From: a virus
Length of the DNA stretch: 64,000 nt
IMG/VR virus record: IMGVR_UViG_3300012964_000010
Location: 1-64,000 of that record
Strand: one strand, 5' to 3'
Below are positions 8,798-19,015 of this stretch, piece by piece (position 1 is the first letter of the stretch; every line of letters starts with the position of its first letter). The position numbers were made by a program, and so were the translations under genes. The notes under the pieces are model-generated. The model was not told where the DNA came from. It was given only the letters and a program-made list of their open reading frames with translations, and made no database searches.

Positions 8798-9319
8798 CTA
8801 CTTGTAAAAATCGTGATTACCGACACGCATCGTCTTCTGTAATTCAAATCTCCAACTCGGATGGCTGGTAAATGGATTATGGAAGTGAGTTGCACCTTTT
8901 GTGTTGTCATGGACTGCACCACTCATTGCTGTGATTGCTACAATACTGGCGACCTGAAATTGATCAACCACGTACTGGTTTATGGTTCCGTCCTTATTTC
9001 TTACCGGTATTTCTTTACCTCTCTTGTCATTTTCGCAATACCACGAAAACGCGCAAACAAGCTTATTTGTTATATGAGATCGTGCTTCAAATTTCACTAC
9101 CTCGCAAATAGTCTTCGGAAACCGTGGATCATGTACACGGTTGAGGGTGACAGAAGCAACCGCAAACTGTCCTCTAATATCTTCATTCCTCGCCTCATAG
9201 TAAACATTTTCTGCAAGACAATATGCTTCCTGCGGATCTATCTTCGATGTATCAATAGCTAATCCACTGATATCGGCGGATTGAAGAAGATATGCAAGCA
9301 ATAATTTTGCTGTTATCAT
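8798..9319 (-). CDS. SleB/CwlJ-family cell wall hydrolase
   Basis: CLAENVYYEAR, VTLNRV, FP.TICEVV, AFSW, GATHFH, GNHDFY. Confidence 0.92.
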   Translation of the reverse strand: MITAKLLLAYLLQSADISGLAIDTSKIDPQEAYCLAENVYYEARNEDIRGQFAVASVTLNRVHDPRFPKTICEVVKFEARSHITNKLVCAFSWYCENDKRGKEIPVRNKDGTINQYVVDQFQVASIVAITAMSGAVHDNTKGATHFHNPFTSHPSWRFELQKTMRVGNHDFYK

Positions 9320-9417
9320 CTTTCTCTCCTAAAATTCCCTCTAAACTCACAAGGGACAATTATTTAGCTCTGTTATTTTAGTATAAACTACATTGTGAAG
9401 TCAACTGGATTAATTTA

Positions 9418-9425
9418 GATAAATA
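9418..9425 (+). promoter_or_regulatory. Late promoter (GATAAATA)
   Basis: Motif upstream of the AAGGA SD of the plus-strand gene. Confidence 0.7.
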
Positions 9426-9443
9426 TAGTAAAGGAATTTATCT

Positions 9444-10055
9444 ATGAAAATTAATCAATTTGACCAAACAGACATATATGAGAGTCTTGCTCCGATGGGT
9501 GGATATTATATATGGACCGTACATTTTACCGATGGTACCGCCGATCAAATTGAAGTTAGAGACAATAATTTATCAGACAAAGAAATAGCAGATCATTTTG
9601 GTAAGGCTGTCTCTAAAGTGGATCGTGATTGGAAAGTTCGCATGAGAGGCGAACGCGGAACCAACGATGAATGGCATAGAGAACAAGATCGTCTCGAAAA
9701 AGAAAAAGCAAAAACTTTATTACCAACCGGCCAACTATACGAAGCTGGAATGAGCGGAATTAATCGCGCTGCACCAGCCTATGATGTTAGTTACGAAGAC
9801 ATTCTAAACGATGTTACAGATAAATGGAAAGGTCAAACTACTGTCGTGAATGAACTTAGTGTTGACAAACTTTCTGCATATAAAGATGCGGCTGCCAGTG
9901 AACAAAGTTTTAAGAAGCGACCGTTAAGGAAGCTTGCTAAGTCTGTGCAAGGTGTGTCCACAGCTACACGCAAAATCGACACAAAATCAACGAAAAAACG
10001 AGAACCAACTGCAGAAAACACATACGAGAGCAGGTTGCAACGATTTCTCAAATAA
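9444..10055 (+). CDS. Hypothetical protein, probable internal head protein
   Basis: Own late promoter and SD; IYE/LYE/VNE putative prohead-protease sites. Confidence 0.75.
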   Translation: MKINQFDQTDIYESLAPMGGYYIWTVHFTDGTADQIEVRDNNLSDKEIADHFGKAVSKVDRDWKVRMRGERGTNDEWHREQDRLEKEKAKTLLPTGQLYEAGMSGINRAAPAYDVSYEDILNDVTDKWKGQTTVVNELSVDKLSAYKDAAASEQSFKKRPLRKLAKSVQGVSTATRKIDTKSTKKREPTAENTYESRLQRFLK

Positions 10056-10061
10056 CAACAC

Positions 10062-10094
10062 AAAATAAAAGCCCTTTACGGGCTTTTATTTTTT
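10062..10094. terminator. Bidirectional terminator between convergent genes
   Basis: AAAAGCCC-TTTAC-GGGCTTTT with A/T tracts on both sides. Confidence 0.85.
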
Positions 10095-10283
10095 CAGAAC
10101 AGAATTAGTTAAGAGTGGAACACACTCATAATGCCAGTGCGGTATCTTTTCAGCGTCATGCTGAGCTCTTGCTATCATGCATTGCTCATACGCAGGATAT
10201 TCTTGCGCTTGTGTAGGTTCGAGACCATACTGGCCGGCGATAAGTGTAATGAGAACCCAGGTGTTCATCCTGCTACTACCCAA
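10086..10283 (-). CDS. Small hypothetical protein, possibly exported
   Basis: 65 aa, hydrophobic N-terminus, two Cys. Confidence 0.5.
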   Translation of the reverse strand: MGSSRMNTWVLITLIAGQYGLEPTQAQEYPAYEQCMIARAQHDAEKIPHWHYECVPLLTNSVLKK

Positions 10284-10350
10284 TTGAGTGCATGACCACT
10301 AAGGTTTGATACTTTAATCATATTTAATTATAACACATTAGTAATTGTAC

Positions 10351-10908
10351 TCAGAGTGTGTCCAAATACTTCACTACATCATCAACCATGGAAACAGTTA
10401 ATGTTATTCTCGGGAATACATTTTTATCACAATATACCGTATGAGGTGATGAGGTCCTTAAGATAGTAGGTCTATCCACCACAACTTCTGTAACTGGTAT
10501 TAGTGTCTTTCTGTATTCCAACGGCCAGGCTCGTGTGCCACCAGAATTCACGGTATGATTTTTATATTGTTCTTCCGTCATCTCAAAAAATGCTGTACGA
10601 CTACCTTCAGTGTTTAAAACAGGTACATTAATTCTTGCCTTAACACCAGCATTTTTGCCAATGGTGTGATCAATGTGTAATGTGCTTGAGTCATAGTTTA
10701 GGACAAGCAATGCAACTTGATTTATCTTTCCGAAGGCAGAGAATCCATCTACAAGCTCCGGAATTTTATCCTCAATCAATGAAAGAGGTATGGGATTCCA
10801 GAAAGGATAGGCATTCAAATCAATGGATCGCTCACGAAGGTATATTGTAAGCAATTTTCTTGTATAAGTTTTGTAGTCACCTACCTCGACATACTTCCAA
10901 TATTGCAT
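10351..10908 (-). CDS. Cupin / 2OG-Fe(II) oxygenase-like protein
   Basis: HID...RINVP...PH.V...R.TL pattern of double-stranded beta-helix enzymes. Confidence 0.6.
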   Translation of the reverse strand: MQYWKYVEVGDYKTYTRKLLTIYLRERSIDLNAYPFWNPIPLSLIEDKIPELVDGFSAFGKINQVALLVLNYDSSTLHIDHTIGKNAGVKARINVPVLNTEGSRTAFFEMTEEQYKNHTVNSGGTRAWPLEYRKTLIPVTEVVVDRPTILRTSSPHTVYCDKNVFPRITLTVSMVDDVVKYLDTL

Positions 10909-10939
10909 TATACTTTTTCTTAGAGTAAAATTGATTCAG

Positions 10940-10967
10940 AATAATAGGGTCTCTCGACCCTATTATT
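10940..10967. terminator. Terminator-like hairpin after NAMPT
   Basis: AATAATAGGGTC-TCTC-GACCCTATTATT. Confidence 0.75.
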
Positions 10968-10975
10968 GACATTGC

Positions 10976-12382
10976 TTACAGGTTGCTGTTAGCACGCACT
11001 TCTTCGAAAGTAATCTCGTTCAGCAGTTTGCCGTCCTTAAACACTTCACGTAGCGCCGATTGCATCCAATCTTCGACACCGGTGGTGTACACACCATTAC
11101 GGTCCTTGTACAGAGTCACTCGGCCTTTCTTGGATACCTTACCTTGGTCGGTAATCGGATCCTTAAACACATCTACCCACTTGCCGTTGATGCGTGCCGC
11201 ACTCGCCTTCATTGCGAACTTTTGCGTGTCGCGGTTAACGATTTGCAGCAATGCGCCGCCCATACCAAAGGCAAAGTTGTCAGCGGACCAGCCACCAAGA
11301 TCGACCATGCGACGCAGGATTGCTTCAATGGATTGCTGATTAATACCGTCGCCCCAGATGATTCGCACGTTATTCAACACTTTAAACCCTTTGTCGTTCA
11401 CTGCATAACCGAAACCTTCATAAACAGTCCCATCGGCGTCGGTAAACCCCTCGGCCAGGATTCTCATCATCTTAGGCACAACTTCAACCGGGTCACCAGA
11501 ATCCGGGCGGATGACCACAGTTGCACCAGATGCAATAATTGCATTCTTCAGCTTCACCCAAATCTTGCAGGCATTGAAGATGTTGTAGCTATCGCTAACA
11601 ACTGCAAGGATTGCACCGGGTTTGCCGAATTGTTTAATCATGTTGCGATATGCAATCTCTTCACCATCACGCAACCAGGCAGTGATAGTGCTGTGTTCTG
11701 CGGCCGGAATACTGAAGCCAGTTGCGTTCAGCGGCGAACCATAGTAACGGTTGGCTGCAATGATGCTCACTGCGGTATCAGTGCCCATGAAGTTCACGAG
11801 GTGTGCCATACCGCCCAGCATTGCGGATTCGTTCGTGCTCACACCTCGTGCACCGAAGTCATGCAGCTTGAACGGAAGTCCTGTTACATCGCCGGACACT
11901 TCCAGGTACTTCTTGATTACCTGCTTGATTTCCCAACTCTGGGTTGCCACAGTAGTCGGGTACCAGATTGCGCGCAGCAGCGGAGTCTCAACCCAGGTGG
12001 TCAACCACGGCACCTTCGGGTCGGTGTTTTCGATAGTAGCAAGAACATTTTTTACAGGAATCACAAGACCTTCGGGCGCGGCCTTAATGACCAGCGGCAG
12101 GTAACCTTTGTGTTCTTTCAGGATATATTCCCAGCCTTCGCGATTGAAAGGCTCGCCGTGACCAGTCCAGAACATTTCTGCGAAGTCGATTTCTTCTTGG
12201 GTAATGGGACGAAGCAGGTATTCCTTGATGAATGCTTGGACACCCAGTAACAGGGTTGCATCGTAGAGACCACCGCGGGATTCGATATATGAGTAGACGT
12301 ACTCAGTACCCTCGGGGTATTGTTTCCACATACTGACCTTATACGAGTCAGTATTGATTAAAATTGAATTTTCCATTTTCAT
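10976..12382 (-). CDS. nadV: Nicotinamide phosphoribosyltransferase (NAMPT)
   Basis: TDSYK, LHDFGARG, PAAEHS, VSDSY, IRPDSG, GDG, FGMGG, RDT.KFAMK. Confidence 0.96.
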   Translation of the reverse strand: MKMENSILINTDSYKVSMWKQYPEGTEYVYSYIESRGGLYDATLLLGVQAFIKEYLLRPITQEEIDFAEMFWTGHGEPFNREGWEYILKEHKGYLPLVIKAAPEGLVIPVKNVLATIENTDPKVPWLTTWVETPLLRAIWYPTTVATQSWEIKQVIKKYLEVSGDVTGLPFKLHDFGARGVSTNESAMLGGMAHLVNFMGTDTAVSIIAANRYYGSPLNATGFSIPAAEHSTITAWLRDGEEIAYRNMIKQFGKPGAILAVVSDSYNIFNACKIWVKLKNAIIASGATVVIRPDSGDPVEVVPKMMRILAEGFTDADGTVYEGFGYAVNDKGFKVLNNVRIIWGDGINQQSIEAILRRMVDLGGWSADNFAFGMGGALLQIVNRDTQKFAMKASAARINGKWVDVFKDPITDQGKVSKKGRVTLYKDRNGVYTTGVEDWMQSALREVFKDGKLLNEITFEEVRANSNL

Positions 12383-12423
12383 AATAAGCTCCTTATTAAA
12401 TAATGCCTCGCTCTATTGCAAGG
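12382..12423 (-). promoter_or_regulatory. Structured 5' leader of nadV (AUAGA-loop hairpin plus SD-loop hairpin)
   Basis: CCUUGC-AAUAGA-GCGAGG followed by UAAUAAG-GAG-CUUAUUA(UG). Confidence 0.6.
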
Positions 12424-12431
12424 ACTTGCCA

Positions 12432-12674
12432 CTATAATAACACAGCTCTTAGTGCAAGAGCAACTGCATCCTCCGAAGAATATTGATAGTTTGTGTTATC
12501 GCGATCCTTTAAATATACTGTCTTTCCATCCTTAAAGGCAAAGATATAAGATGCACAATATCGCATCCTTATTGGAATATAATTAAAATTATTAAAATTA
12601 CGTTCATTAATTGCAACTATCTCAGAATATCCATATGCTTCCTGTGCGTATTCTTCGAACTTAAGGTAGATCAT
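12432..12674 (-). CDS. Hypothetical protein
   Basis: 80 aa ORF ending in EDAVALAL. Confidence 0.65.
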   Translation of the reverse strand: MIYLKFEEYAQEAYGYSEIVAINERNFNNFNYIPIRMRYCASYIFAFKDGKTVYLKDRDNTNYQYSSEDAVALALRAVLL

Positions 12675-12931
12675 TCTCTTGTCTCTGCATCGATAATATG
12701 CCGATGAAGAACTGGTACACCCTTTACAATATCTCCACCATATGTTAAGGAGTATGCAGTAGCATCCTCTTCCCTATTAAAACGGAGATGTGACAAAATC
12801 ATATCTCTATTTGGTAACACAGAAATGGGGTGATATTCAACATTGTCGTATCCTCTCTCATTAAGATTTGATACCAACTCGTAGAATTCTCTTCTACCAT
12901 TAAGAGGATTAACCTGGATATAATAAGTCAT
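12671..12931 (-). CDS. Hypothetical protein (F..EDA..[FY].L family)
   Basis: LRFNREEDATAYSLTY. Confidence 0.65.
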   Translation of the reverse strand: MTYYIQVNPLNGRREFYELVSNLNERGYDNVEYHPISVLPNRDMILSHLRFNREEDATAYSLTYGGDIVKGVPVLHRHIIDAETRE

Positions 12932-13389
12932 TTCAAATTTCGAATTTTCACGATCACTTCTTCGAGTGTATCTACTACAGGAATCCAATGACGCTTACAT
13001 ACAATCTCTACGTTACCTTTTCTCCAATAACCATCGGGGCAACATACGATAACCAATTTCTGTGCAGTTTTAGCCATTAGCCCGAGTTCCATTAGTGTAA
13101 TCGGCGATTTGGTATTAGGATCAAAATAAAACACAACCAAATCAGCATAATTCAACGCATCCAATTCCCAATTCACTTGTTCGGCGAATTCGGGATTATC
13201 TGCCACCTGAGGAACACTATTGTTCCAGTTGTCACGGCGTGGATTAAGGAAAGTAATATCGGTATCTGCACATTCACGGATTATATGCTTTTGCCATTCC
13301 TCGGCACTATTCATTTCGATACTACCACCCAGAAATACCGTAATAGCATCTAAGTGTTGGTATGCGTTAGGTGCTTGAATCTCAATCAT
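12928..13389 (-). CDS. Nucleoside 2-deoxyribosyltransferase-like protein
   Basis: VFLGGSI, NPRR, QVNWE, SPITLMELG, GYWRKGNV. Confidence 0.85.
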   Translation of the reverse strand: MIEIQAPNAYQHLDAITVFLGGSIEMNSAEEWQKHIIRECADTDITFLNPRRDNWNNSVPQVADNPEFAEQVNWELDALNYADLVVFYFDPNTKSPITLMELGLMAKTAQKLVIVCCPDGYWRKGNVEIVCKRHWIPVVDTLEEVIVKIRNLK

Positions 13390-13643
13390 TATCGATCTCC
13401 ACTACCTGGGTAATCACGTTCACTGTGGCCAGTACCGGTGGATACTGTTTCTTTGAAATGAACTGTAGCACCAGCGAATGCCTTCTCGTCACGTTCACTG
13501 TAGCCATAACCGACACTCTGAGTTACCAGATTGAGTTCAACACTCTTAACTTTCATACCAGTCTCATCCTCAACTGCTTTACAAATTATCTCTTTAACCG
13601 TATCGGCTGAGATAGTCATTGATGTTGCAAATTTAAATTTCAT
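13389..13643 (-). CDS. Hypothetical protein
   Basis: ORF in operon. Confidence 0.6.
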   Translation of the reverse strand: MKFKFATSMTISADTVKEIICKAVEDETGMKVKSVELNLVTQSVGYGYSERDEKAFAGATVHFKETVSTGTGHSERDYPGSGDR

Positions 13644-13644
13644 A

Positions 13645-13902
13645 TCATAACCCCAGTGCTGCACGTTCAGCAGCGGTTAATTTGGCCAATGCTTGTGCTC
13701 GAAGCGCCTGTTCCTTGGCTTCCTTATATTCTTGTATCGACTCGTATATAGTAATTGATTTTTGATATCGACTATAACCCATATAGCCATTACCATTTAC
13801 AAGTTCTTTGGCCAGGGATTCAGTGGATACAAATGCAACATGGTTATGAGTGTAACCATCGGTATCCCAAACTTCATAACAATCCATATCAAATTGTTTC
13901 AT
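13645..13902 (-). CDS. Hypothetical protein
   Basis: Ends in ALAKLT.AERAALGL, a common phage C-terminal motif. Confidence 0.7.
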   Translation of the reverse strand: MKQFDMDCYEVWDTDGYTHNHVAFVSTESLAKELVNGNGYMGYSRYQKSITIYESIQEYKEAKEQALRAQALAKLTAAERAALGL

Positions 13903-14117
13903 CTTAAACCTTTCCCTCTTCCGAGTCTTGTATTTTTCATCTTATCCCTTAATGAGAGAAGATAATCACGATCCTTTATGTATGCTTCTTTCAGAGTTGT
14001 ATCACCTGCAGCAATCGCATCTAATATTTTCTTATCAGACCGTGACGCTTCGTTTGTAATGCAGTTTATGATATTCTCAGCATCTACATCGTTGACAATG
14101 AAATCGAAATGTATCAT
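13899..14117 (-). CDS. Hypothetical protein
   Basis: Probable start MIHFDF after GGAGG SD. Confidence 0.65.
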   Translation of the reverse strand: MIHFDFIVNDVDAENIINCITNEASRSDKKILDAIAAGDTTLKEAYIKDRDYLLSLRDKMKNTRLGRGKGLR

Positions 14118-14118
14118 A

Positions 14119-15165
14119 TCAACCTCCCACTGCCCAGGTAATAATGTCATAGTGATCATCAAAACATTCATCTGGCCGGATGCTTGCAATCTGACGCCAC
14201 ATCTGACGCCACGGTACATCCTCGGCATCGTCCATACCCTTAACCTTATCTAAAGGCCCATCAGGGAGCACAATCTTGAAAGCATGTGTAATAGTGCGGC
14301 CGCGTGCACTGCGGTCAATCGCATCAAACACACGAGAATCCATGATGCTACCGATTAAGACTGGCACCGGAACCTTAAGGCCAGTTTCTTCACGAAGTTC
14401 GCGAATTGCCGCATCTTGCACGCTCTTATCGGTATTAGCATTTACAAATCCACCGGGCAGCGCCCACAGGCCCTTACCGGGTTCGGAGCGACGCTTAACC
14501 ATCAATACATGACCCGATTTAATTACCACGGAATCAGCAGTGCTGAAGATAGGTGGATAAGCCATACCTTCGAACTGTTTCTTGTACTTTGCAATAAATT
14601 CGCGTTCACGAATAATCTGTGCATATTCGGGAGTTTTCTGAAACATTTCCAGAAAGGTTAAAGTCTGGTGCGGGATTACAGTTTGGATAAACTTAAAGTT
14701 CATCCTATCACGGAAGTACAGATCACGAATATCACTTGCGTTAAGCTGTTCCAGGAGTTCTACTTCTTCGTGTTCCCATTGTGGGAACATGCGGAGATAG
14801 AAGCTCGATGCATCCTTACTATGGCCAATAATACCAATCTTGTCATCGGTATTACTGTATTTTGCCACAATGGATTGCACACGCGCTGCCCAGGCCTGGT
14901 CATTGTAAAGACTGTCTCGAACAGGTTCGATGTGCACTTCATTCAGTGACATGTTATTAGTTACGGTCGATCGCAGAAGCGAAGTGCGCTCTGCGACAGT
15001 GAACGGATTCTTGAAGGTGCGGGGCGTATCTGCGCTGCCCAGGATGATGACCAGTTTCTTGGCCATTGCGCCAGCACGATGAATAATCTCCGCGTGGGCA
15101 TTGTGTAGGGGTTGGAAACGACCGATGTAGACCATCAGGTCATATTTCTTTTTATATTGTTCCAT
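14119..15165 (-). CDS. nadM: Bifunctional NMN adenylyltransferase / Nudix ADP-ribose pyrophosphatase (NadM-Nudix, NatV-like)
   Basis: IGRFQPLHNAH, KNPFT..ER, Nudix box GGF...AAIRELREETG. Confidence 0.95.
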   Translation of the reverse strand: MEQYKKKYDLMVYIGRFQPLHNAHAEIIHRAGAMAKKLVIILGSADTPRTFKNPFTVAERTSLLRSTVTNNMSLNEVHIEPVRDSLYNDQAWAARVQSIVAKYSNTDDKIGIIGHSKDASSFYLRMFPQWEHEEVELLEQLNASDIRDLYFRDRMNFKFIQTVIPHQTLTFLEMFQKTPEYAQIIREREFIAKYKKQFEGMAYPPIFSTADSVVIKSGHVLMVKRRSEPGKGLWALPGGFVNANTDKSVQDAAIRELREETGLKVPVPVLIGSIMDSRVFDAIDRSARGRTITHAFKIVLPDGPLDKVKGMDDAEDVPWRQMWRQIASIRPDECFDDHYDIITWAVGG

Positions 15166-15223
15166 TCTAAACTCCTTAGAATTGTTGATATGCGGTAGAG
15201 TCTATCTCTACAACATATTTATA
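15164..15223 (-). promoter_or_regulatory. Late promoter TATAAATA plus structured 5' leader of nadM
   Basis: TATAAATA at 15216-15223, GUAGAG-AUAGA-CUCUAC, then AUUCUAAG-GAG-UUUAGAAU(G). Confidence 0.65.
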
Positions 15224-15257
15224 CTTTAACAGTATTTTATCAAAAGATCAAGAACTA

Positions 15258-15728
15258 TCAGTTGTCGAAACCGCGGCAGTATTCGTCATTACTGTCGCCG
15301 CATACTTCTTGAATATCGGCACCTGATGCAGACTTACCAACGCAAGAGTTATTGAAACGATTAACACGTTCATTGTATTGATCGGATCGATCATTAAAAA
15401 TTTTCTTATCACGCTTATATTGGCGTAGAAGAGAATTATATTCTTCGGCATCGCGTCTAAACTCTTCTCGCACACTATAATTATATTCTGGTGTTCCACC
15501 ATTGAAACTATTAATCATTGCTAATCGCGTTTCAAGGAAAGGTCGTTTGATATCTAGTGTACGACGCTCACTATCTACATCGTCACCAAAACTATCAAGT
15601 TGTTCTTTTTGACGATCGAGTGATAATGAATCAAAACGGCATGTCCGAAGTTGGTCAATTGTTAGATCCGCTGCAAAGGCACCTGTTGCAGCAATAGAAA
15701 AAAGCCCTGCGATAATAATTGTTTTCAT
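15258..15728 (-). CDS. Exported coiled-coil protein
   Basis: Sec signal MKTIIIAGLFSIAATGAFA/AD, four Cys. Confidence 0.75.
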   Translation of the reverse strand: MKTIIIAGLFSIAATGAFAADLTIDQLRTCRFDSLSLDRQKEQLDSFGDDVDSERRTLDIKRPFLETRLAMINSFNGGTPEYNYSVREEFRRDAEEYNSLLRQYKRDKKIFNDRSDQYNERVNRFNNSCVGKSASGADIQEVCGDSNDEYCRGFDN

Positions 15729-15736
15729 CTTAATCC

Positions 15737-16015
15737 TTAACCATTGCGAAGTTTTTGCATAATTCTTTTAGCTTCATCTTCTCGTTCTTTTTGAAATTGA
15801 TCCCATCGTTTTTTCACCTCAAGGCAGAAAAGGTATAGAAGATAAAGAAAGAACATGGACACAAGGCCCACAGCCCAAATTACAAATGCGTTAAATACAC
15901 CGAGTATACAAGCAGGAATAATTCCCAGGCCGGTATAGAATAGGAATAGTAAAGAAATTTTTTCATCAATACTAAGTCTATTCCACCACCATTTAACAAA
16001 TCGCAATACATCCAT
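15737..16015 (-). CDS. Membrane protein
   Basis: Two TM segments. Confidence 0.7.
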   Translation of the reverse strand: MDVLRFVKWWWNRLSIDEKISLLFLFYTGLGIIPACILGVFNAFVIWAVGLVSMFFLYLLYLFCLEVKKRWDQFQKEREDEAKRIMQKLRNG

Positions 16016-16308
16016 TATTCACTACTCCCTTTATCAAGGTCCCCAAACAGCCTAAGAAACTCTTCCTCTTCCTCAACCGTCCATTCAATGATATCAGTAT
16101 AGTCATCATCAAGGATTGGAATCACCGAGGATGCGTCGATTTCAGCCAGTTGACCAATCATCGGATGATGAATATTGTTAGTGTTGGCCCAGGTCATGGC
16201 CATCTCTCTTGCCTTGTTAGCTGATACGGCCTCTACTATTATGTAATGTATATCAGCTGCAACCGGGCCGGACTCAATACTAACTTTCCATTTTGATAAT
16301 TTTGGCAT
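16015..16308 (-). CDS. Hypothetical protein
   Basis: 97 aa ORF, acidic C-terminus. Confidence 0.65.
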   Translation of the reverse strand: MPKLSKWKVSIESGPVAADIHYIIVEAVSANKAREMAMTWANTNNIHHPMIGQLAEIDASSVIPILDDDYTDIIEWTVEEEEEFLRLFGDLDKGSSE

Positions 16309-16744
16309 ATTCAGCCTTGTAAACTCGATTCCTTAAACTACTTGTCGAGAATCCGTGATTTCTAGAATTAAAGACGACCTTCTCACTCATACACGGGATA
16401 TCATGTCCTGTGTATGGTTTTCCTTGCCAATCAGCTCCAATAAATCTTTTATCAAATTTGATTGAACAAAAGAGATTATACAAGTCTTGTTCGGTTTCGT
16501 AAACCACAACCTCGTCGATGTACTTGCATGCACGCACTTGGAGATATCGTTCATGTACACTTTGAATGGGCACATTCTTCTCAGCCCTATCAATATTCGG
16601 ATTAGTCTGTAACAGTACGATAAGATAATCGCACTGTCCCTTACATTCCTCGAACATCAAAAAATGTCCAGCGTGAGTCAAATCAAATGACCCAGCTGTT
16701 ACACCAATGATGCCTTTACTATTACTACTCCTGTTCTGAATCAT
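16280..16744 (-). CDS. Cytidylyltransferase (TagD/RfaE-like HxGH family)
   Basis: GSFDLTHAGH, ER, IDEV, GADW, STSSLR. Confidence 0.9.
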   Translation of the reverse strand: MIQNRSSNSKGIIGVTAGSFDLTHAGHFLMFEECKGQCDYLIVLLQTNPNIDRAEKNVPIQSVHERYLQVRACKYIDEVVVYETEQDLYNLFCSIKFDKRFIGADWQGKPYTGHDIPCMSEKVVFNSRNHGFSTSSLRNRVYKAEYAKIIKMES

Positions 16745-16746
16745 TA

Positions 16747-17073
16747 TCAGACAGGAAAAGGCCATGCGCCGGCACTAATAAGTTGTGCCTTACGTGCCGG
16801 GGTGATTCCATTAGATGGAGAAGCAAATGCTTCTTCAGCCATTTGCTTCTCCATCTTCGAACCATTCACTACTTCAGCAAGATATTTGTCCTTAACATGG
16901 GATAAGAAATACTTACCGACAGAGGATGAATTCTGCATCTCCTCAACCACAAAGGCAGGAACACCTGAATAACGATAGAAACTACCGTTATTAAATTTGA
17001 CTGTGAGATTTGTGCGGCGTGGGTTGTAAGCAAATGCTTCAATCATGCTGCTTTTTACTTTAATAATATCCAT
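16747..17073 (-). CDS. KTSC-domain protein
   Basis: SSMI...Y....L.VKF.NG..Y.YSGVP.......SVGKYF. Confidence 0.88.
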   Translation of the reverse strand: MDIIKVKSSMIEAFAYNPRRTNLTVKFNNGSFYRYSGVPAFVVEEMQNSSSVGKYFLSHVKDKYLAEVVNGSKMEKQMAEEAFASPSNGITPARKAQLISAGAWPFPV

Positions 17074-17099
17074 ATTTTTACCTCTTTAATTAAATTTAC

Positions 17100-17882
17100 T
17101 TATTTGAAGTTGACAAATTCTACAACTTCAAATTTCTTCTTCTTATCTAACATGACTACTGCCCCAGATAAGAATCCACCTTTACCACAACCGGTATCTA
17201 AGAAAATAACCTTACCGCCATGGCTGTTTGGAACAACCATAGGTTCAGTAATCGGAATATTGTTGATAGGCTGTTTATCATGTCCCACGATAAGAGTCTT
17301 CCCATTCGGAACTTCGTTGATCCAATTGTATAAGCGAACTGGATAACCATCATCGTATTTTTCACCATTTGTTTCACCGACGATAAACCTCGATCTTTCA
17401 GTCTTACCAATATTTGGATTTTCTTCCCAGAGTGCGGGATGACTTGCTGCGTGTACCAATGCAATATCATCAAAATGGTGATATAATCCCGAGAAATATT
17501 TGTCAGAAATTAAACGAGTATACGCCTGCATAAAATCTTCATACCGTGCTTCCCCGACATCTTCTAAAGTCTGCTTAGAATCCCTGGAGAATACAACCTG
17601 GGCACCACGTGTGTAATAACGATGAAATTTATCATCGTGATTACCCAAAGTGAAACCGCCGAGTCCTTCGTAAATGATTTCATCCATTGCCCTAATAGTT
17701 TCGTAAGGTTTGCGACCACGATCAACTAAATCCCCGAGTGACATGAAGAAAAAGTTTTCGCTGACTGCATAGTCGTGAGCACGCTTGAAGGAATCGTAAT
17801 CTCCGTGTACATCTCCGAAGACTAACATTCCATCAAAATTTCCCCTAACATGATCAGCTAACTTAAACATTTCTACTTTCAC
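17100..17882 (-). CDS. Calcineurin-like metallophosphoesterase (PrpE/Pnkp-like)
   Basis: GDVHG, GDLVDRG, GNHD, VGH, DTGC. Confidence 0.9.
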   Translation of the reverse strand: MKVEMFKLADHVRGNFDGMLVFGDVHGDYDSFKRAHDYAVSENFFFMSLGDLVDRGRKPYETIRAMDEIIYEGLGGFTLGNHDDKFHRYYTRGAQVVFSRDSKQTLEDVGEARYEDFMQAYTRLISDKYFSGLYHHFDDIALVHAASHPALWEENPNIGKTERSRFIVGETNGEKYDDGYPVRLYNWINEVPNGKTLIVGHDKQPINNIPITEPMVVPNSHGGKVIFLDTGCGKGGFLSGAVVMLDKKKKFEVVEFVNFK

Positions 17883-18232
17883 GGTTTATGATACCAGCCT
17901 ATATTTTTAAAACACTCTTCGACTAAAGAGCTTACACGACCCTCATCACCAGAGCAATAATAATCCATGTAAGTCTCGTTAGTATTATAATGCTTATTTC
18001 TTATATCTGCAATGATAAAACCGGCGCCACGCCAACTGCAGGACCAGACATATTCATCTGTGCCTTGCAGTCTGCGTATAACTCGATCCTCATTGGTAAT
18101 ATCCTCGATTTTATACCAGTCCATATTACATAGAGCACTATAAAATTCTCTTGCAATTACTGCATCGCGGAGGTATGTTACGGTTACAGAATCGACGCTC
18201 ATATCCTGAGATAAACTCGGTGTTAAGTCCAT
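17879..18232 (-). CDS. Hypothetical protein
   Basis: FYSALCN, CSWRGAG, YMDYYCSG. Confidence 0.75.
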   Translation of the reverse strand: MDLTPSLSQDMSVDSVTVTYLRDAVIAREFYSALCNMDWYKIEDITNEDRVIRRLQGTDEYVWSCSWRGAGFIIADIRNKHYNTNETYMDYYCSGDEGRVSSLVEECFKNIGWYHKP

Positions 18233-18993
18233 AATCCATCTCGTGTCTTTATTAAACGAATAAGCATTTCGTTATCTTCTTTATGCCACTCATCCTGTTG
18301 TGCACTGGCCATATCGAGTTCAGCTTCATATTCTTTATATTCATCTGAATTATAATCATAATTAACGAAAAGGCCGACATTATCGACATCAATGGGCTGA
18401 GGGCGCACTGGCCTCAACCTTACCCTGCCCGGTCGGCCATCGACCCACCACTTGTATAGAATATGAACTTCTCTTGCGTATTCGGCCTGCGCCGGGCTTT
18501 GTTCATATGTCGGTAAAGTAGGATCGTCTAAGGTCGATGCCCATTCGAGGTATTTTATTCCCAAGTCTGGTCTACGAAATGGAAAAAATAAGTGATAGGA
18601 TGGTACATATTTAGAATACCAACTCTGTTTTTCTTCGTCAGTGTGTAACCAGCGTCTTGCTAGATCTACCTCAACATAATCTTTTAAAAGAGTGAAATTA
18701 ACGTAAAGCATAATTTCACTCTTTTCTGCATAACCGGGTTCTAATCCAGTCTTTACAACGTGATATCGATCAGTGGTACGATATCGAATCCAATCTACTA
18801 ATTTACGGTATTTCCATCTTACTGGATTAACATATCTACGTCTAAAATCGTTATGAATCCAATAGCGTATAGCCGCCTTTTCTTTAAATTCTCTGTTAAA
18901 GGAATCCCACCCTTCAGCGCTAAGTGCATATGGTGGATTAAATGCCATCCATGCACTAAATTTTTTATAGATTTCTATTGTACGTTTTAACAT
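18223..18993 (-). CDS. Hypothetical protein
   Basis: Long ORF with LYKWW...R and MLIRLIK.R..LW motifs typical of T4-like phages. Confidence 0.75.
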   Translation of the reverse strand: MLKRTIEIYKKFSAWMAFNPPYALSAEGWDSFNREFKEKAAIRYWIHNDFRRRYVNPVRWKYRKLVDWIRYRTTDRYHVVKTGLEPGYAEKSEIMLYVNFTLLKDYVEVDLARRWLHTDEEKQSWYSKYVPSYHLFFPFRRPDLGIKYLEWASTLDDPTLPTYEQSPAQAEYAREVHILYKWWVDGRPGRVRLRPVRPQPIDVDNVGLFVNYDYNSDEYKEYEAELDMASAQQDEWHKEDNEMLIRLIKTRDGLWT

Positions 18994-19015
18994 CTGACAG
19001 GCTGATAAAAAGTAT

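Follow-up and report, generated by a model that had tools for sequence, protein, structure and literature searches.

The two genes for nicotinamide adenine dinucleotide (NAD) salvage in the viral record IMGVR_UViG_3300012964_000010, nadV and nadM-Nudix, are each preceded by two small hairpins of the same layout. This raises the question whether the two leaders represent a common cis-regulatory RNA and what such an RNA would respond to. The stretch analysed here, referred to as the window, comprises positions 1 to 64,000 and thus the first 64 kb of the 127,320-nt record (CheckV completeness 32%). Comparison with related phages indicates that the leaders very probably form a genuine, selected cis-regulatory RNA that is specific for NAD salvage. 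They would constitute a new phage-specific 5′-leader RNA family for NAD-salvage genes of the NARP2 type, predicted to act as a dual-hairpin translational operator that is most likely locked by a protein, a reading to which we give an even chance.

Pfam searches support the gene identities that had been proposed at first. The nadV gene (10976-12382, minus strand) encodes a nicotinamide phosphoribosyltransferase of 468 amino acids with matches to NAPRTase (1.7e-49) and NAMPT_N (3.4e-25), and nadM-Nudix (14119-15165, minus strand) encodes a fusion of nicotinamide mononucleotide (NMN) adenylyltransferase and Nudix hydrolase of 348 amino acids (CTP_transf_like 1.1e-11, NUDIX 1.5e-17). NadV and NadM-Nudix together make up NARP2, with which phages restore NAD+ and evade NAD-depleting defence systems, among them Thoeris, DSR and SEFIR.

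Read on the minus strand, both leaders show the two-hairpin layout base for base as in the original prediction. The minimum-energy fold of either leader in RNAfold consists of both hairpins, with modest z-scores for the single sequences (−1.45 to −2.91). The nadV leader (12427-12381) begins with the 5′ tail AAGU and hairpin 1, CCUUGC/AAUAGA/GCGAGG (tail and hairpin 12406-12427, stem 12423-12406; −7.6 kcal/mol), which contains one U.G pair. An A/U-rich linker of 7 nt, CAUUAUU (12399-12405), leads to hairpin 2, UAAUAAG-GAG-CUUAUUA (12382-12398; −1.7 kcal/mol), with the Shine-Dalgarno (SD) sequence GGAG at 12392-12389; its last stem base is the A of the AUG (12382). The nadM leader (15216-15164), also on the minus strand, has hairpin 1 GUAGAG-AUAGA-CUCUAC at 15195-15211 (−5.5 kcal/mol), the stem of which can be extended by the flanks AUGU/GCAU. 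It is followed by the 12-nt linker CGCAUAUCAACA (15183-15194), CA-rich as in many nadM leaders, and by hairpin 2, AUUCUAAG-GAG-UUUAGAAU (15164-15182; −3.0 kcal/mol), with the SD sequence GGAG at 15175-15172. Here the AU of the AUG (15165-15163) falls within the 3′ arm.

Hairpin 1 alone (at least 6 bp, 5-nt loop A-N-D-G-A) is found in the record as often as expected by chance (10 observed against 11.8 ± 2.7 in Markov shuffles). A hairpin of at least 6 bp that ends at the start codon precedes 21 of 221 crude open reading frames (ORFs) of the record, and about five of these 21, nadV and nadM included, expose SD-like purines in the loop. Since neither hairpin stands out on its own, the special part is the combination of the two and its conservation.

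To describe this combination, a first model (R1) was derived from 19 leaders, taken from relatives and including both leaders of the window; as these had been picked for having the hairpins, the pairing statistics of R1 itself are biased. At E ≤ 1 the model found two matches in the whole 127,320-nt record, namely the leaders of nadV (12381-12427, 57.8 bits) and nadM (38 bits). A more general model (R2), built mainly from nadM leaders, returned the same two, with 50.1 bits for nadM (15164-15213) and 29.6 bits for nadV. R1 was further applied to ten large phage records (G001-G010) and R2 to the record of the window (G000) and nine of the ten (all except G009), in total about 2 Mb with six records rated complete. 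All matches of at least 29 bits in these records are leaders of nadV, of nadM or of an operon holding nadM. Weak R2 matches (15-25 bits) appeared in G002, G003 and G006, and the ones inspected (three of five examined) lacked the layout. The earlier statement that the layout is absent from other genes thus applies to the full motif in the own record as well as in further large phage records.

A protein search with NadV retrieved 68 loci on viral contigs, and in the 90 nt upstream of nadV the same layout recurs with differing stem sequences. Among 59 distinct nadV leaders, 51 have a hairpin of at least 5 bp ending at the start codon and 32 a hairpin 1 that carries an A..GA loop on an unbroken stem; in several more this hairpin contains one mismatch. 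Hairpin 2 is present in 58 of 78 distinct nadM leaders, a strict hairpin 1 in 46 and both in 39; the nadM genes without either hairpin are mostly preceded by another ORF, which then bears the leader. R1 was also run on both strands of the own record plus the 68 loci (841,057 bases) and gave 69 matches at E ≤ 1, every one on the nadV strand. They include 21 secondary matches. Where these lie 1.1-1.3 kb upstream of nadV, the ORF that follows has 337-374 amino acids. Of 17 following ORFs that were checked in Pfam, 13 combine CTP_transf_like and NUDIX, one is a PnuC-type NMN transporter, one a KTSC protein and two belong to no family. The PnuC gene (locus L007) and the KTSC gene (L030) were rejected as members, as only the hairpin-2-like SD hairpin was matched and the full motif is absent. 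The transporter gene (L007:1987-2621) adjoins nadV and has an SD hairpin but no recognisable hairpin 1.

The same restriction to NAD-salvage genes emerged from patterns that were blind to the genes. The pattern AAGTCC-N4-GATAGAC-N4-GGCA gave 81 matches on viral contigs (80 loci inspected of 106 stretches), 76 of them directly before NadV homologues whose proteins are 33-70% identical. One of the other five is an identical leader cut by the contig end, and four are chance matches with one of the four N-pairs formed. Genomes of bacteria and archaea (596 Gb) contain the pattern in 55 stretches, of which 10, 26, 14, 3 and 2 form 0, 1, 2, 3 and 4 pairs, respectively, which is the distribution of chance. 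The single full leader in these genomes (60.2 bits) stands before NadV on a 5.6-kb contig (L191) of a metagenome-assembled genome labelled Bacillaceae and is probably a phage contig that was binned into this genome. Among the matches on metagenome contigs (80 loci inspected of at least 119 stretches), 47 precede NadV, 27 lack pairing, and 6 show pairing in a truncated or variant form. For a second loop class, C-A-N-N-G-A-G, 43 matches were obtained; all 20 that are fully paired precede NadV, and the other 23, 21 of which are poorly paired, do not. A flank-free pattern (GATAGAC, a gap of 14-34 nt and TAAGGAGTTTA) was matched 87 times in 80 loci, 37 times before NadV, 19 times before NadM and twice before a 108-amino-acid ORF heading a nadM operon, while 17 matches are chance-like. 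Its remaining 12 matches, before a terminase gene, were discarded: they come from one lineage, with a 4-bp stem and without hairpin 2.

The conserved neighbours of the leader are the two enzymes as well. In 148 loci NadV was found 143 times and NadM 119 times, any other neighbour from the window at most 16 times. The leader occurs in a complete, T4-like record of 172 kb (G007, the record of L018) that encodes a RegA-type repressor (141.9 bits), and also in jumbo records without RegA; therefore it is not confined to one phage lineage. Overall, hundreds of uncultured phages carry it, with compensating changes in the stems, and it is nearly absent elsewhere. In several loci small ORFs (phrog_12218, phrog_37251, phrog_33851) lie between the leader and nadM (L004:626-952, L138:7794-8120, L096:3223-3582 and L151:5172-5546, the latter two on the minus strand) and are therefore under the same control. 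Some contigs contain two NadV-like ORFs of 233-249 amino acids, each with its own full leader (L088 at 4133 and 6066; L129, L143, L135), which may be split, duplicated or broken nadV genes.

The original prediction had seen structure under selection in the different but still paired stems of the two leaders. This view is borne out by the alignments and by the recurrence of the layout in relatives. Alignment A5, in which the model aligned 72 distinct rows of the pattern set, has 94.5% paired cells, and each of its 12 pairs changes on both sides. Among 500 shuffles there was none as good, and a slid partner left 24-51% paired. An alignment with a nadM-centred seed (A7) gave 92.2% paired cells and changes on both sides in 15 of 15 pairs. 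Cleaner support comes from the N positions of the patterns and from hairpin 2, on which neither of the first two patterns was based: both are paired in the NadV-linked matches and not in the others. Outside a recurrent mismatch described below, G.U pairs number 29 and A.C pairs 8, which argues for pairing of the RNA on this strand and not for a DNA palindrome.

Throughout the family the promoter is followed by about 4 unpaired nt and hairpin 1; a linker rich in A/U or CA then leads to hairpin 2, whose 3′ base holds the AUG. The linker measures 0-27 nt in the parsed nadV leaders and 6-13 nt in 69 pattern-derived leaders. Hairpin 1 (6-9 bp, mean −6.2 kcal/mol) frequently contains one A.A or A.C mismatch and carries a pentaloop A-N-D-G-A. 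The loops AUAGA, AGAGA, AGUGA, AGGGA, ACGGA, AAGGA, ACAGA, AAAGA and AUGGA were seen, with AUAGA clearly dominant (GAUAGAC in 66 of 72 distinct rows). The near-identical leaders L035 and L039 differ by AGAGA versus AUAGA, and loop positions 2 and 3 are therefore free. Indeed, the only invariant unpaired bases across nadV and nadM leaders, besides the SD sequence, are A1, G4 and A5 of this loop. The fourth pair from the base of hairpin 1 (columns 8 and 56 of A5) is A.A in 13 and A.C in 13 of 68 cells from nadV leaders, and a purine-rich internal loop, 2x2 or 3x3, is found at this level of the stem in many nadM leaders; this mismatch or internal loop could be a recognition feature.

Hairpin 2 consists of 6-9 A/U-rich pairs with the SD purines in the apical loop (GAG or GGAGN), and in nearly all leaders the apex reads AAGGAG, AAGGAA or AAGGAU. 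With a mean of only −1.6 kcal/mol it would need to be stabilised for repression. A hairpin that covaries, is weak and displays the SD purines seems unlikely to block ribosomes alone; it looks like a shape that is recognised or locked by something. Kissing of the two loops, a pseudoknot between the hairpin-1 loop and a hairpin-2 arm and an anti-sequestor pairing were considered by eye and dropped, because the complementarity present in some leaders, e.g. of the AAUAGAGGAGUUCUAUU type, does not track the loop changes. The strongest SD-apex hairpin of the record lies outside the window: it is a 9-bp hairpin with a GGAG loop (auauaguau-GGAG-auacuauau) that ends at the start codon of a 132-amino-acid ORF (G000:C1:118664-119062, minus strand), without hairpin 1 and without a model match.

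The upstream regions suggest where the transcripts begin. When 69 distinct regions upstream of pattern matches in relatives are numbered from the first A of AAGUCC, 35 of them have TTGAC beginning precisely 35 nt ahead of this base and 37 have a TAYAHT hexamer beginning precisely 12 nt ahead of it. Judged from these elements, the nadV promoter of the relatives is a near-consensus TTGACA-N17-TGnTATACT with a putative +1 at the first A of AAGUCC. In the window an extended −10-like element, TGtTATTAT (12434-12442, minus strand), is found upstream of nadV, with a predicted start at 12427, the first A of AAGUCC; its −35 element is poor and the promoter was missed by a consensus scan. The nadM gene has a promoter-like box, TATAAATA (15216-15223, minus strand), 4 nt upstream of hairpin 1. 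The [GT]ATAAATA box is strongly enriched before genes: of its 51 copies in the record, 26 are found in the 80 nt preceding a crude start of the same strand, a zone amounting to 6.9% of the sequence space, and most of these stand 26-39 nt ahead of the start. In most nadM leaders of relatives such a box, by eye and uncounted, stands a few nt before hairpin 1. It is probably the phage's own late-type promoter and drives nadM, the nadV promoter being of the host type; the timing of the two enzymes may therefore differ. According to these elements hairpin 1 would be located at the mRNA 5′ end behind two types of promoter.

The spacer of the nadV promoter can itself form hairpins. In the promoter spacer region of the window lies hairpin H0, GCUCUU-GCACU-AAGAGC (12445-12461, minus strand), which was flagged as terminator-like. 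Relatives (L003, L075-L151) carry a covarying inverted repeat, ACAnnnn-loop-nnnnTGT, inside the 17-nt spacer of the sigma70-type nadV promoter. This repeat reaches at least 5 bp in 34 of 35 promoters, with a mean best stem of 7.03 against 4.37 ± 0.18 after shuffling, and shows G.T wobbles on the sense strand.

How would such a leader work? Hairpin 1 may be the specificity element at the mRNA 5′ end, while hairpin 2, too weak alone to block ribosomes, would be locked shut once a trans-acting factor binds, so that synthesis of NadV and NadM-Nudix would come under one common control. Most probably this factor would be a protein. A protein is favoured over a small-molecule pocket by the three invariant loop bases, the weakness of hairpin 2, the variable linker and the lack of an internal loop common to all leaders. 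The most economical version would be autogenous feedback by NadV or NadM, e.g. by NadM-Nudix responding to ADP-ribose or NAD, because NadV and NadM alone always accompany the leader across unrelated lineages. For the same reason the earlier suggestion that NadM-Nudix itself binds the leader is kept alive as a conjecture. Tight control would have a reason, since the pathway is costly (it consumes phosphoribosyl pyrophosphate, PRPP) and the operon of KVP40 is toxic in E. coli, as stated in the NARP2 preprint (10.1101/2024.02.11.579819). Small hairpins next to or enclosing the ribosome-binding site are typical of autogenous phage operators, which served as the working model for the leader. The targets of T4 gene 43, gene 32 and RegA and the operator of the MS2 coat protein are hairpins to which a phage protein binds and thereby shuts off translation. 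The phage leader differs from them in lacking any similarity of sequence or loop, and RegA was found in only one of five records tested. Nevertheless the identity of the factor, the sign of the regulation and the signal are speculative; candidates for the factor are an enzyme of the pathway, a metabolite and a ubiquitous component of the host, and there may be no factor at all. Of the cis-regulatory RNA originally predicted, the conserved, structure-selected element common to both NAD-salvage genes thus stands, whereas its effector stays conjectural.

Several points weigh against a protein-locked operator. To our knowledge neither NadV nor NadM-Nudix has a known RNA-binding domain. The SD purines of hairpin 2 are displayed in the loop and not paired, and therefore hairpin 2 could aid translation as easily as hinder it. 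The phages of the cultured NadV relatives ACP17, RTH11 and Mx1 gave zero model matches, so the leader is dispensable for the pathway; RsoM2USA gave only a 16.6-bit match, mostly to hairpin 2. The position of the transcript start rests on consensus promoters. Furthermore, the rows of A3 and A7 were picked for hairpins and those of A4 and A5 were fitted by the model, so that the pairing percentages lean upward, and many rows are related, so that the counts do not represent independent events.

A possible but unlikely alternative is a constitutive expression cassette that senses nothing, in which hairpin 1 is a 5′-terminal stabiliser against decay that depends on the 5′ end and hairpin 2 tunes initiation. 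Stabiliser hairpins of the ompA type lie within a few nt of the mRNA 5′ end, and by the consensus promoters the putative +1 is about 4 nt before hairpin 1, which would lie within a few nt of the start behind both promoter types. The weakness of hairpin 2 also agrees with a cassette, as does the modular way in which the leader moves together with its genes: one and the same 50-nt leader precedes a NadM ORF in L102 and the 108-amino-acid ORF in L138. A general cassette should be reused, yet in the approximately 2 Mb of large records the leader is found before nadV and nadM only, and this strict restriction to NAD genes argues against mere stability and tuning. Simple stability also does not need three invariant loop bases while the stems vary.

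Also unlikely, and somewhat more so, is a self-contained sensor of the NAD pool, which would be either a tiny riboswitch for ADP-ribose, nicotinamide or NMN or a reading of NAD+ via the 5′ cap. A very small new riboswitch, whose hairpins would individually or in a docked state recognise NAD+, NMN, nicotinamide, ADP-ribose or PRPP and thereby alter access to SD and AUG, appears distinctly doubtful in itself. It would fit the strictly NAD-specific regulon, whose two enzymes serve one pathway but are unrelated and stand behind different types of promoter, and the occurrence in unrelated phage lineages without a shared third gene. The known families do not match, but only about three unpaired bases are invariant besides the SD sequence, the linker varies in length, the purine-rich loops are by eye not complementary, and there is no conserved junction or internal loop common to all leaders, the mismatch pair being present in only 26 of 68 cells. 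With the covariance models of Rfam 15, neither leader was matched in window positions 9000-19000 at E ≤ 10, and searches of 12360-12470, 15145-15260 and L004:4900-5020 gave only noise of 11-13 bits from small nucleolar RNA or small RNA models. The 4227 Rfam models include both NAD+ riboswitch classes, and the original view that the leader is not a known NAD+ riboswitch agrees with the absence of any matching Rfam family. The class I (nadA motif) and class II (pnuC motif) riboswitches are likewise leaders of NAD genes, and class II also acts at the SD sequence; the phage leader differs in having no match even on stretches of about 110 nt, in far fewer conserved bases and in its position before nadV and nadM instead of nadA or pnuC. 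Guanidine-II (mini-ykkC), which also acts on translation, resembles it in having a pair of tiny hairpins, joined by a variable linker, whose loops are conserved and whose stems covary. In mini-ykkC the two loops resemble each other (ACGR) and base-pair together, whereas the loops of the phage leader differ and are not complementary.

The leader might instead be recognised by a global regulator of the host, of the CsrA/RsmA type, or by an ANTAR-type dimer bridging both loops, which we consider improbable. The consensus of CsrA is a GGA in a hairpin loop. Like CsrA/RsmA sites, hairpin 2 places a GGA over the SD sequence in its apical loop, with a second purine-rich loop upstream at bridging distance, and some hairpin-1 loops read A-N-G-G-A (AGGGA, AAGGA, ACGGA, AUGGA). 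Such loops are a minority, however, as the dominant AUAGA of 66 of 72 rows contains no GGA. The leader is specific for one pair of genes and not global, although a global regulator is expected to act on other phage genes as well, and five phage records contained no CsrA gene while the control worked. These findings weaken the CsrA/RsmA site that had been offered as an alternative at first. ANTAR targets are the nearest architecture. Like the phage leader they consist of two short hairpins, each weak alone, with a variable linker and recognition of loop bases; the second hairpin may overlap the ribosome-binding site or AUG to repress, and A1 and G4 of the loop agree with hairpin 1 (PMC8164766). 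Linkers of 6-13 nt in 69 relatives and of 7 and 12 nt in the window lie within the 2-25 nt described for these targets (PMC8164766). Nevertheless the phage leader is not a member: ANTAR targets have hexaloops with A1 and G4 in both hairpins, but hairpin 1 has a pentaloop (A1, G4, A5) and hairpin 2 the misfitting GAG or GGAGN, and the regulon of the leader is strictly NAD salvage. Searches for PF03861 (ANTAR; five phage records) and for the RegB family found no match in phage records, the control genomes being silent too.

Very improbable is a switch linked to the NAD cap. As long as NAD+ is abundant, the conserved A-start of AAGUC would permit capping of the mRNA with it, after which a Nudix enzyme (the NadM domain or host NudC) would remove the cap and open the mRNA to decay; depletion of NAD+ would be the only condition for a build-up of mRNA that bears a triphosphate instead of the cap and is shielded by hairpin 1. 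If transcription starts at the second A, AAG agrees with positions −1, +1, +2 and +3 of the NAD-capping consensus H-3 R-2 R-1 A+1 S+2 W+3 W+4 given in bioRxiv 10.1101/239426. One of the regulated proteins contains a Nudix domain, and some homologues show sub-threshold matches to the Nudt16-like decapping family. By the consensus promoters, though, +1 is the first A, which puts an anti-consensus A at +2; nadM leaders have no AAGUC start, and the switch, a purely inferential one, leaves the conserved loop and hairpin 2 unexplained.

A DNA operator for an NrtR-like repressor, or hairpin 1 as an intrinsic terminator or attenuator, is close to refuted: the site at about +5 to +25 is a frequent operator position, bacterial nadV, nadM, prs and pnuC are under NrtR and its common ADP-ribose signal, and nadV hairpin 1 with its CAUUAUUUAA tail was flagged as terminator-like, but NrtR is a Nudix-derived repressor of 21-bp DNA palindromes with conserved half-sites and a GT-N7-AC core (PMC2330246), whereas the phage leader is an RNA with free stems whose half-sites vary with compensation, whose conserved part is an asymmetric loop, whose wobbles favour G.U as stated above and whose every match is strand-specific, and nadM leaders have no U-tract, none being flagged, with CA-rich nadM linkers in relatives.

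The protein-locked operator would therefore be a new family within the known kind of translational operators in leader RNAs, with a real but minority chance that a new class of sensor is involved. The literature searched yielded no description of an RNA element associated with nadV or nadM of phages. A catalogue of viral structured RNAs (PMC10690425) does not mention nicotinamide, NAD, Nudix or riboswitch in its main text, while its supplementary lists might hold the motif unnamed, and the words promoter and UTR (untranslated region) are absent from the main text of the NARP2 preprint (10.1101/2024.02.11.579819).

Since a common leader is kept across proteins of 33-70% identity and across differing phage lineages, expression of this counter-defence is likely to be controlled post-transcriptionally, and the 45-50-nt element offers a direct handle for testing such control. 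With a pathway enzyme as effector, the leader would add a new example of a metabolic enzyme exerting autogenous control through RNA; with a metabolite as effector, it would define a riboswitch class that is new and occurs in viruses. Should the leader indeed sense the NAD pool, NAD rebuilding would be switched on only once the host defence destroys NAD+, making the leader the first RNA sensor devoted to counter-defence. In addition, the motif is a compact and highly specific marker for nadV and nadM genes in metagenomes.

The source virus is a large myovirus-type phage, because tail sheath, large terminase, ribonucleotide reductase and helicases are encoded in the window, the genes of which lie nearly all on the minus strand. 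The sequencing runs listed for it are wetland metagenome DNA. A comparison of the region with 50,697 phage records on the DNA level, in near and distant modes, gave zero matches, and the closest cultured NadV is 62% identical. Between nadM and nadV a gene resembling nucleoside 2-deoxyribosyltransferases is located (12928-13389, minus strand; PF15891, 5.3e-33), for which tblastn matches were obtained in 11 of 148 related loci.

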